Shown: piece by piece, positions 20,115 to 20,500 of the stretch
How positions within the stretch are numbered: position 1 is the stretch's first letter
How the letters are laid out: each line of letters starts with the position of its first letter
Source of the DNA: Escherichia coli
GTDB lineage: Bacteria > Pseudomonadota > Gammaproteobacteria > Enterobacterales > Enterobacteriaceae
Assembly: GCF_003790525.1 (NCBI RefSeq)
Contig: NZ_CP033635.1
Strand: one strand, 5' to 3'
Length of the DNA: 64,000 bases
Made by a program: the position numbers and the translations under genes
Notes under the pieces: model-generated
The model's input: the letters and a program-made list of their open reading frames with translations, nothing else
Database searches by the model: none
Told to the model about the DNA's origin: nothing

Positions 20115-20225
20115 TGTATCTTATATTGTGATATCGGTGCTGCTGCTGTTATTTTTTGTTGTATTTGTGACGAATGGTTAAGAATAAAACATGAGCTGGT
20201 GATTATCAGGACAGGTTGCTTGTAT

Positions 20226-20321
20226 ATGAAGATAACAAAGGCGGCATTTATTTTTGCGCTGTCAGTGTGGAGTGTTGCTGTGATATGTCTTTTATTATTT
20301 GTACTGGTTGTTCTGGGATAG
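20226..20321 (+). CDS. possible small hydrophobic membrane peptide (31 aa)
   Basis: MKITKAAFIFALSVWSVAVICLLLFVLVVLG; AT-rich moron region; another hydrophobic mini-ORF near 20130-20185. Confidence 0.25.
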   Translation: MKITKAAFIFALSVWSVAVICLLLFVLVVLG

Positions 20322-20500
20322 CTATAGTGGAATTATTATTTTTTTAAGACTATGGTTTATATTTTTATTCGGCAATATTTCTGTAAACAATTAAATATCA
20401 GAAAGGCGTGTTGTATGCGTGAACACGCCTGAGTATGTATACAGAGATTGTTAATTTGGAGAGAATGAGCCTGTTTAGGATTCTGTGTAAATGCCTTTTC

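Follow-up and report, generated by a model that had tools for sequence, protein, structure and literature searches.

A candidate small membrane protein gene at the end of a prophage adhesin cassette in Escherichia coli

The stretch of DNA analysed here, hereafter the window, comprises 64,000 nucleotides (nt) of Escherichia coli contig NZ_CP033635.1 (assembly GCF_003790525.1), and the feature under study is a group of very short hydrophobic open reading frames (ORFs) at positions 20115-20466. A lambdoid E. coli prophage carries an accessory cassette ("moron") at its right end, and the interval covers the 3' end of that cassette. On the plus strand the cassette carries, in this order, a gene for a YadA-like trimeric autotransporter adhesin (18164-19597), a gene for a regulator of 151 amino acids (19659-20114) and, as third cassette gene, a frame of 31 codons designated ORF2 (20226-20321). 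A second short frame on the same strand, ORF1 (20104-20181), straddles the regulator stop. Taken as a whole, the data are best explained by ORF2 being a real, unannotated gene that is predicted to encode a small membrane protein and that closes the adhesin cassette, a reading to which a probability of about 0.62 is given.

ORF2 runs from the ATG at 20226 to a TAG ending at 20321 and encodes MKITKAAFIFALSVWSVAVICLLLFVLVVLG, exactly the coordinates and sequence given in a preliminary description of this DNA, which had also rightly called the region AT-rich (GC content 0.32-0.36). After two lysines (K2 and K5) come 25 residues, hydrophobic for the most part, with a best 17-residue Kyte-Doolittle mean of 3.18; the product is probably a small protein of the inner membrane whose N-terminus faces the cytoplasm. 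The ATG is preceded, at a spacing of 10 nt, by a Shine-Dalgarno sequence of moderate strength (-5.0 kcal/mol with the anti-Shine-Dalgarno sequence; -6.9 kcal/mol for the regulator gene). In about 200 metagenome contigs, gene callers predict ORF2 as a gene of 31 amino acids. Searches of Pfam (E<=1), NCBIfam (E<=10), PHROGs and PADLOC gave no family for the peptide of either ORF, and the only relatives found for ORF2 were near-identical ones; a tblastn search of ORF2 against phages gave no matches and is uninformative, low-complexity masking being the probable cause. Neither the peptides nor the accession numbers of the regulator are mentioned in the literature searched.

Since T-rich DNA codes for hydrophobic residues in any frame, the sequence was shuffled. 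The plus strand has strongly more G than C and more T than A (40% T, 10% C), so that codons with T in the middle position dominate, and one further frame across ORF2 likewise lacks stops and is fairly hydrophobic. Such figures suit the by-product view, in which neither ORF has a function and both arose incidentally in the T/G-rich, AT-rich 3' untranslated DNA that ends a cassette gained by horizontal transfer. For the shuffles, a qualifying ORF was one of at least 24 codons with a best 17-residue Kyte-Doolittle mean of at least 2.5. Among 2000 dinucleotide shuffles of 20100-20466, at least one such ORF appeared in 9.9% and two in 0.15%. Block shuffles of 20100-20339 in units of 15, 30 or 60 nt, which keep the local composition, gave one in 2-6% and two non-overlapping ones in 0.04-0.12%; both sets of figures overstate significance somewhat, the region having been chosen post hoc in the preliminary description. 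A single ORF of this kind is unremarkable; the pair exceeds chance expectation, and that two arise in at most 0.15% of shuffles, with local composition kept or not, speaks against the by-product view.

The decisive line of evidence is the synteny of diverged cassettes. As the regulator has no relatives below 94% identity, the membrane anchor of the adhesin served as the query, and 26 loci on viral contigs were found whose adhesin anchors are 53-62% identical to that of the window. They are called Eib-type here because one of their adhesins matches the solved EibD fragment. In all 21 loci that extend past the adhesin, the next gene encodes a phrog_6585 regulator of 156-181 amino acids starting with MKVILATRNRYLEYGLQ; in all 17 that extend further, a single-helix ORF of 41-62 amino acids (phrog_9340; for example MSSSGNQTRKKQRYITGAMCFMLFVWLGGVVALCAFAAVVMP and MKQANLKYVKKRYTAGAMCFMLFVWLGAVVTLCAVAAVMMQ) overlaps or follows the regulator stop on the same strand. 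The window shows the same order of adhesin, regulator and small ORF on one strand as these 17 loci. Three Eib-type loci have a convergent dinI gene after the small ORF.

The Eib-type small ORF lends itself to a test of selection. Among seven distinct core sequences, synonymous differences per site (pS) amount to 0.43-0.95 and non-synonymous ones (pN) to 0.05-0.21, with pN/pS of 0.08-0.35, and the core GAMCFMLFVWLG is invariant in all seven despite many synonymous differences. Judged from these rates, phrog_9340 is unquestionably a genuine gene under strong purifying selection. Conservation of the ORFs, as opposed to the nucleotides only, among homologous regions had been proposed earlier as a test of the ORFs of the window; it is inapplicable to these, their copies being near-identical only, and is clearly passed by the Eib-type family (same pN/pS range). 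The helix of phrog_9340 is invariant and its cytoplasmic N-terminus hypervariable, which suggests a membrane-embedded partner rather than the soluble regulator. In strain G1/2, the Prokaryotic Genome Annotation Pipeline (PGAP) annotates the ORF as a hypothetical protein of 60 amino acids abutting the regulator stop; one NCBI record labels the gene "ORF-60D", and elsewhere it is a "hypothetical protein". PHROGs gives phrog_9340 no function, and neither NCBIfam nor Pfam has a family for it. The Eib literature searched, with the original Eib papers lying outside its scope, makes no mention of downstream genes.

Strains of enterohaemorrhagic E. coli carry a decayed remnant of an Eib-type cassette between tail-fibre genes (O157:H7 strain H6437, L080 2262-2723; further O157:H7 and O111 strains). 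This remnant has no adhesin at the usual position, an internally deleted regulator and a destroyed small ORF, and PGAP annotates a hypothetical protein of 62 amino acids over part of it. O157:H7 was dropped as a source of ribosome-profiling data, for only this remnant of the Eib-type regulator and small ORF is present there.

The regulator of the window and phrog_6585 are homologous by sequence: BLASTP aligns the former with an Eib-type regulator at E 8e-5 and 22% identity, collinearly over nearly the whole length, the phrog_6585 hidden Markov model (HMM) matches it at E 2.8e-4, and the motifs ILATR..Y.E..L, F.G, LT..E, YR and E.G...KTV...L are shared. ORF2 is read here as the positional counterpart of phrog_9340, with a divergence comparable to that of the regulator. 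Like phrog_9340, it stands last in an adhesin-regulator-small ORF cassette, on the same strand and, as in some of the Eib-type loci, with dinI convergent, and its predicted product likewise has a short basic cytoplasmic N-terminus and one helix reaching the C-terminus. A MAFFT alignment with the C-termini matched gives identical columns A, F, L, V, W, V and L at 29-32% identity, and the positions T..A..F.L.VW...V..L are common to ORF2 and the phrog_9340 helix in an ungapped alignment anchored at the C-terminus.

Local alignment of the two by Smith-Waterman is better than that of composition-preserving shuffles (p 0.002-0.014). With hhalign, ORF2 matches an alignment of five phrog_9340 sequences at E 7.8e-5 (probability 62%) and one of 22 sequences at E 7.4e-4 (probability 26%), a score that helix-only shuffles attain in 2% of cases (p 0.02). 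Scores at background, below that of ORF2, were obtained for ORF1 and for nine decoys, unrelated small membrane proteins serving as hydrophobic controls only. These scores, by which ORF2 exceeds both shuffles and decoys, make it possible that ORF2 is a remote homologue of phrog_9340. The differences are also clear. ORF2 has 31 amino acids as against 41-62, with only five cytoplasmic residues; it starts 111 nt past the regulator stop, whereas the Eib-type ORF overlaps that stop or starts at most ~70 nt after it; the invariant glycines of GAMCFMLFVWLG are absent from it; and it falls short of membership at the HMMER level.

ORF2 and the regulator gene share a reading frame, and between them lie one TAA (20112-20114) and 37 stop-free codons. 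Given the composition, such a stop-free separation has a chance of ~5%, and the shared frame is probably a coincidence, since the Eib-type small ORF uses a frame different from that of its regulator.

Variation within the cassette of the window was assessed in an alignment of 51 copies, drawn from complete genomes, from metagenomes and from assemblies of read-archive data. In ORF2, five sites vary (A6V, F10L, I20M, V28I and L30M), all of them non-synonymous and all exchanging one hydrophobic residue for another. ORF1 shows one synonymous change and the in-frame loss of one CTG from a (CTG)3 run, and three sites vary among the 60 non-ORF bases within 20100-20333. The single-base changes possible in ORF2 would be synonymous in ~27% of cases, hydrophobicity-preserving in 30%, radical or non-conservative in 39% and nonsense in 4%; none of the five observed belongs to the last two classes (p ~0.06). 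Read in the two alternative frames, the same five changes produce a stop and several radical replacements, so that the substitutions are uniformly conservative in the ORF2 frame only. This pattern favours coding, although it is suggestive only. The ratio of non-synonymous to synonymous rates (dN/dS) within the cassette was tried and rejected as underpowered, with six point changes across both ORFs in the 51 copies; the sample is too shallow for it because the regulator itself shows seven of eight changes non-synonymous in the same copies.

A further indication is given by the border of the cassette. The segment corresponding to 17360-20333 of the window recurs in prophage and in island contexts. 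The full-length, prophage-type form found in the window occurs in 22 genomes; the island type is commoner, its left end being cut by an IS3-type transposase within the tail-fibre assembly gene, at 17360. From 20334 onwards the two types are fully different, which places a mosaic breakpoint at 20333-20334, 12 nt past the ORF2 stop. Junctions in phage mosaics typically lie at gene borders, and the position of this one therefore lends mild support to ORF2 as the gene at the end and counts against the by-product view. Taken together, the shuffles, the exclusively conservative substitutions and the synteny shared with all 17 related cassettes, whose small membrane protein gene is under selection, make a chance origin unlikely for ORF2, and for the ORF pair jointly. 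The preliminary description had allowed that such peptides might arise by chance in AT-rich DNA; this option is disfavoured for ORF2 and for the pair, and it may still hold for ORF1 alone.

ORF1 comprises 25 codons from the GTG at 20104 (or the TTG at 20107) to 20181 and encodes VLNNVSYIVISVLLLLFFVVFVTNG. The second peptide noticed earlier, near 20130-20185, is thus real, its true span lying slightly further to the left. The GTG sits 11 nt inside the regulator gene, ORF1 overlapping the regulator stop, and 5 nt on its 5' side lies the Shine-Dalgarno-like GGCGGGGGA (-8.6 kcal/mol with the anti-Shine-Dalgarno sequence), which makes for the strongest ribosome-binding site of the cassette, stronger than that of the regulator. 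For these two reasons, the strength of the site and the overlap with the stop, ORF1 may be translated. No counterpart of ORF1 was found in the related cassettes, nor any similarity to phrog_9340, its scores being at background. On balance, that ORF1 is functional is somewhat doubtful.

Part of the doubt concerns a long imperfect hairpin at 20087-20150, followed by AUUUUUUG, so that the whole element extends over 20087-20157 on the plus strand. It has a folding energy of -21.6 kcal/mol (z = -2.5) and is equalled in stability by 5 of 200 shuffles. The CTG repeat and the T-run that supply the Leu and Phe codons of ORF1 are its 3' arm and U-tract. Its basal stem is rich in G-U pairs, and a consensus terminator scan did not flag it. 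The element may weakly terminate or attenuate transcription where the regulator gene ends. Were the hairpin a terminator, ORF1 could be a by-product and ORF2 would be reliant on read-through. No promoter-like sites were found on the plus strand in 19500-20600, and ORF2 is probably co-transcribed with the regulator by read-through.

It has also been considered that ORF1 and ORF2 are the halves of one two-helix membrane protein of ~73 amino acids, joined by -1 slippage on the U6 tract (20151-20156) or else by an ancestral T7 allele, of which the common form would then be a frameshifted pseudogene. The ORF2 frame is indeed open for 67 codons back to 20121, and one T7 assembly encodes a continuous ...VLNNVSYIVISVLLLLFF-CCICDEWLRIKHELVIIRTGCLYMKITK..., in which a basic loop joins two hydrophobic segments. 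That assembly (GCA_028598215.1, L082 1902-2185) is also the source of a fusion of regulator, ORF1 and ORF2, a 220-amino acid "sigma factor-like" protein in NCBI, which was set aside as a probable sequencing error because it depends on two homopolymer changes in a single assembly, T6 to T7 at 20151-20156 and, 60 nt upstream, G5 to G4 at 20094. All 51 aligned copies have T6. Inspected by eye, the U6 tract does not fit, in the ORF1 frame, the X XXY YYZ pattern of canonical slippery sites, no stimulatory structure follows it, and the Eib-type counterparts have a single helix. A two-helix protein is accordingly hardly credible.

Several results weigh against ORF2 as a gene. Its ribosome-binding site is moderate and the 10-nt spacing poor, and PGAP annotates neither ORF at the five loci inspected in complete genomes. 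A HMMER profile of 22 phrog_9340 members gives ORF2 1.5 bits, which 12% of shuffles equal, and a PHROGs scan (E<=1) did not match it to phrog_9340. ORF2 lacks the invariant core GAMCFMLFVWLG, with AAFIFALSVWSV as its aligned residues, which retain only A, F, L, V and W and have other residues in place of the glycines, and nucleotide alignment of 20115-20340 with the Eib-type small-ORF regions is not significant. With no synonymous change in ORF2, dN/dS lends no support. The terminator-like hairpin and U-tract between regulator and ORF2 could block read-through. Finally, strain SFE8 has an IS3 within the third codon of ORF2 and an inversion splits ORF1 in another genome, so neither ORF is indispensable. 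Much of this is what by-products would lead one to expect: a non-significant profile test with no phrog_9340 match, no contrast between synonymous and non-synonymous changes, no annotation, and a hairpin with U6 that looks like a terminator. The Leu/Phe run of ORF1 would then be the terminator arm and U-tract of the regulator gene, and the likeness of ORF2 to phrog_9340 the generic similarity of hydrophobic helices. Set against the rarity of the pair in shuffles, the selected gene at this position in every related cassette extending that far, the alignment scores, the conservative substitutions and the junction just past ORF2, this explanation is considered unlikely, and ORF2 as a genuine gene remains preferred.

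Two kinds of irregular copies deserve mention. In GCA_964257775.1 (L009 5001-9101), the segment from the middle of ORF1 to ORF2 lies on the opposite strand, ~3 kb from adhesin and regulator, and an element of the IS256 family directly adjoins it. The rearrangement looks like an inversion with one breakpoint in the CTG repeat of ORF1, and it yields a chimeric ORF of 129 amino acids ending in ORF2. Dozens of draft contigs start at the equivalent of 20118-20145 of the window, and in these the ORF2 frame is called as a "partial hypothetical protein" of 59-68 amino acids (P0023-P0036). Such calls likely reflect assembly-graph breaks upstream of a C/T difference at 20196 in genomes with two copies and not biology.

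The preliminary description had suggested type I toxins or small membrane modulators as roles for the peptides, with a search for an antisense RNA as a check. If one or both peptides were type I toxins restrained by an antisense RNA, post-segregational killing would stabilise the prophage or the cassette. Peptide size, extreme hydrophobicity and prophage location fit, and from a weak promoter-like site on the minus strand (TTCATA-17-GATAAT, 20230 to 20202) an antisense RNA of ORF1 could be transcribed. This weak site is, however, the single promoter-like site, as against a shuffle mean of 2.6, and hence no enrichment. Within the cassette, the consensus scan detected no terminator on the minus strand, RNA folding revealed no stable structure (fold z = -1.3) and Rfam returned nothing in 20100-20466; both the antisense and the promoter search relied on consensus scans, which an atypical RNA could escape. 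Neither peptide matched Hok, Ldr, Ibs, TisB or other toxin families in Pfam or NCBIfam, and PADLOC returned nothing. In the Eib-type loci, the counterpart gene lies on the strand of the regulator gene and overlaps its stop or starts shortly past it, an operon arrangement unlike stand-alone toxin loci, and disruption of ORF2 by IS3 is tolerated. The toxin option thus has no support and is rated very improbable. Of the membrane modulator option, the small membrane protein is supported for ORF2 by synteny and design.

Turning to the other genes of the cassette, the adhesin gene (18164-19597) has a YadA_anchor domain in Pfam (E 1.4e-16), and its anchor matches the YadA structure 2lme in PDB at 1.5e-17; at homologous loci PGAP calls the product a "YadA-like family protein". 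Its true start is likely the ATG at 18218, as predicted from the signal-peptide-like sequence that comes next. The gene contains tandem repeats of 99 bp (33 amino acids) at ~18743-19175, where related loci show large gaps and extra repeat alignments, which suggests that the repeat copy number varies. Variation in stalk length is typical of trimeric adhesins.

The regulator (19659-20114) has an "ILATR" domain at its N-terminus and a LuxR/sigma-70 region-4 helix-turn-helix at its C-terminus (Pfam Sigma70_r4_2, E 1.7e-7). No relative below 94% identity was found among 5.8 billion proteins, an exhaustive HMMER search of 1.84 billion representatives returned only generic sigma-70 region-4 matches (E ~5e-4), and scans of species-representative genomes and viral contigs with a profile of the regulator alignment gave nothing new. 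The gap between the adhesin and regulator genes contains, at 19613-19645, a GC-rich hairpin of near-perfect pairing, TCCCGGGGG-GAGT-CCCCCGGGA, with TATAAT directly 3' and no T-run. Two of the few polymorphisms of the cassette, at 19624 and 19629, fall within it. It might stabilise the RNA, serve in RNA processing or act as an attenuator.

With names taken from the PGAP annotation of an uninterrupted homologous locus in strain B771, the gene order reads tail fibre, DUF4376 tail-fibre assembly, adhesin, regulator, ORF1, ORF2, convergent dinI-like gene and a 3'-end fragment of transfer-messenger RNA (tmRNA). The last of these, a 43-nt match to the tmRNA 3' end at 22341-22383, is probably the attachment site of the prophage. 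Just beyond it, on the minus strand of 22318-22521, Rfam reports isrK (69 bits, E 9e-14) and a c4-a1b1 target (51 bits), both above gathering, and the C4 antisense RNA below gathering (28.5 bits); a P4/P1-type antisense immunity element seems to abut the prophage end. The DNA of the small ORFs is present in 183 of 5426 complete E. coli genomes (~3%), always on the chromosome and at 97.4-100% identity, and was not found in phage and plasmid collections. Many carriers of the cassette are poultry and extra-intestinal isolates.

Beyond ORF2, an element of the IS256 family, 1305 bp long and IS1414-like, occupies 20467-21771 on the minus strand and is flanked by the 8-bp target duplication GAGAGAAT at 20459-20466 and 21772-21779; the preliminary description had named it as the second copy of IS1414. 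The same locus in strain B771 lacks the insertion sequence (IS), its empty site being intact. A second copy of one end of the same element, in the same orientation, is found at 11230, 9.2 kb upstream, which fits the first copy of that description. Past the element lies the dinI-like gene (21851-22069, minus strand), which is convergent with the cassette, marks the prophage end and is called "DinI-like family protein" by PGAP at the homologous place.

A hairpin that had been linked to the small ORFs at about 20404-20431 does exist, at 20404-20430, with a 9-bp stem (20404-20412/20422-20430) and a loop of 9 nt, yet its attribution requires correction. Its folding energy is -14.3 kcal/mol on the plus strand and -12.4 on the minus strand, where z = -4.4 in a context of 97 nt. 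On the plus strand the stem is followed by UGAGUAUGUAUAC, with no U-tract, whereas on the minus strand it is followed by the tail UUUCUGAUAUUU. Where the locus is uninterrupted, it follows the dinI stop at a distance of ~107 nt. The Eib-type loci, too, have a GC-rich hairpin preceded by an A-run between small ORF and dinI; on the minus strand, where the run is one of T, it reads as a canonical terminator, such as GGGGAGCATGTTGCTCCCCTTTTTTT. The strand asymmetry of the window hairpin and the parallel in the Eib-type loci favour assigning this hairpin to the convergent dinI-like gene, as its putative intrinsic terminator, and not to the small ORFs; the IS insertion has separated it from dinI. 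It was considered whether the 133-nt spacer carrying the hairpin travels with other dinI genes, and it does not: the spacer occurs in 22 genomes only, the same count as the full-length prophage-type cassette, and other dinI genes match from the gene itself only (~74% identity).

In the proposed model, the YadA-like adhesin, the LuxR/sigma-70-region-4 regulator and the small membrane protein would form a three-gene accessory operon, in which ORF2 would be translated from the read-through transcript of the regulator. Its product would be a bare transmembrane helix, with two lysines in a cytoplasmic N-terminus of five residues and the helix extending to the C-terminus, and by the positive-inside rule it would insert in the inner membrane with the N-terminus in the cytoplasm. 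There, like other helix-only proteins, it might modulate a larger inner-membrane protein by packing against the transmembrane part of the latter. The partner could be a host protein, and the effect could fall on adhesin expression or display, or on the entry of superinfecting phage DNA. A wider idea is put forward tentatively: prophage genes for trimeric adhesins, those of the Eib type and of the diverged type in the window, might travel as a conserved but as yet undescribed three-gene unit in which the regulator is an atypical LuxR-type one and the helix-only small membrane protein is a functional partner, ORF2 and possibly ORF1 being fast-evolving versions of it. If so, the small protein could couple the regulator or adhesin display to a membrane signal, or block the DNA entry of rival phages.

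Small membrane proteins of less than ~40 codons are systematically missed, and ORF2 is unannotated even though ~3% of complete E. coli genomes carry its sequence. The recurrent cassette of adhesin, regulator and small protein, for which the literature searched offers no description, provides a concrete and cheaply testable hypothesis for ORF2, which would be an unannotated member, or a close analogue, of an uncharacterised small-protein family. It also flags phrog_9340 and phrog_6585 as candidate partners of Eib-type adhesins, which have been studied for immunoglobulin binding and chain-like adherence. The advance is incremental and its novelty modest, the family being confined to E. coli accessory DNA.

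Among known systems, type I toxins such as Hok, Ldr, Ibs, TisB, ShoB and DinQ are also short hydrophobic peptides, sometimes encoded by prophages; they differ from the present case in that no antisense RNA gene, own promoter, long structured leader or family match was found here, and in the operon context. A second comparison is with the moron-encoded inner-membrane superinfection-exclusion proteins of the HK97 gp15 type, reportedly described by Cumby et al. in 2012. Such a protein is likewise small, membrane-located and the product of an accessory gene near the tail genes of a lambdoid prophage, which makes a functional analogy plausible; gp15 is larger, and an exclusion role for ORF2 is purely hypothetical. 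A third group comprises MgtR, KdpF, AcrZ, PmrR and MgtS, enterobacterial helix-only proteins of the inner membrane that modulate larger membrane proteins, are frequently encoded first or last in an operon and frequently escape annotation. ORF2 lies in a prophage cassette, and its decoy comparisons with such proteins stayed at background, with no sequence relationship found; the likeness is one of build, for these proteins, too, have 25-50 amino acids and a single transmembrane helix.

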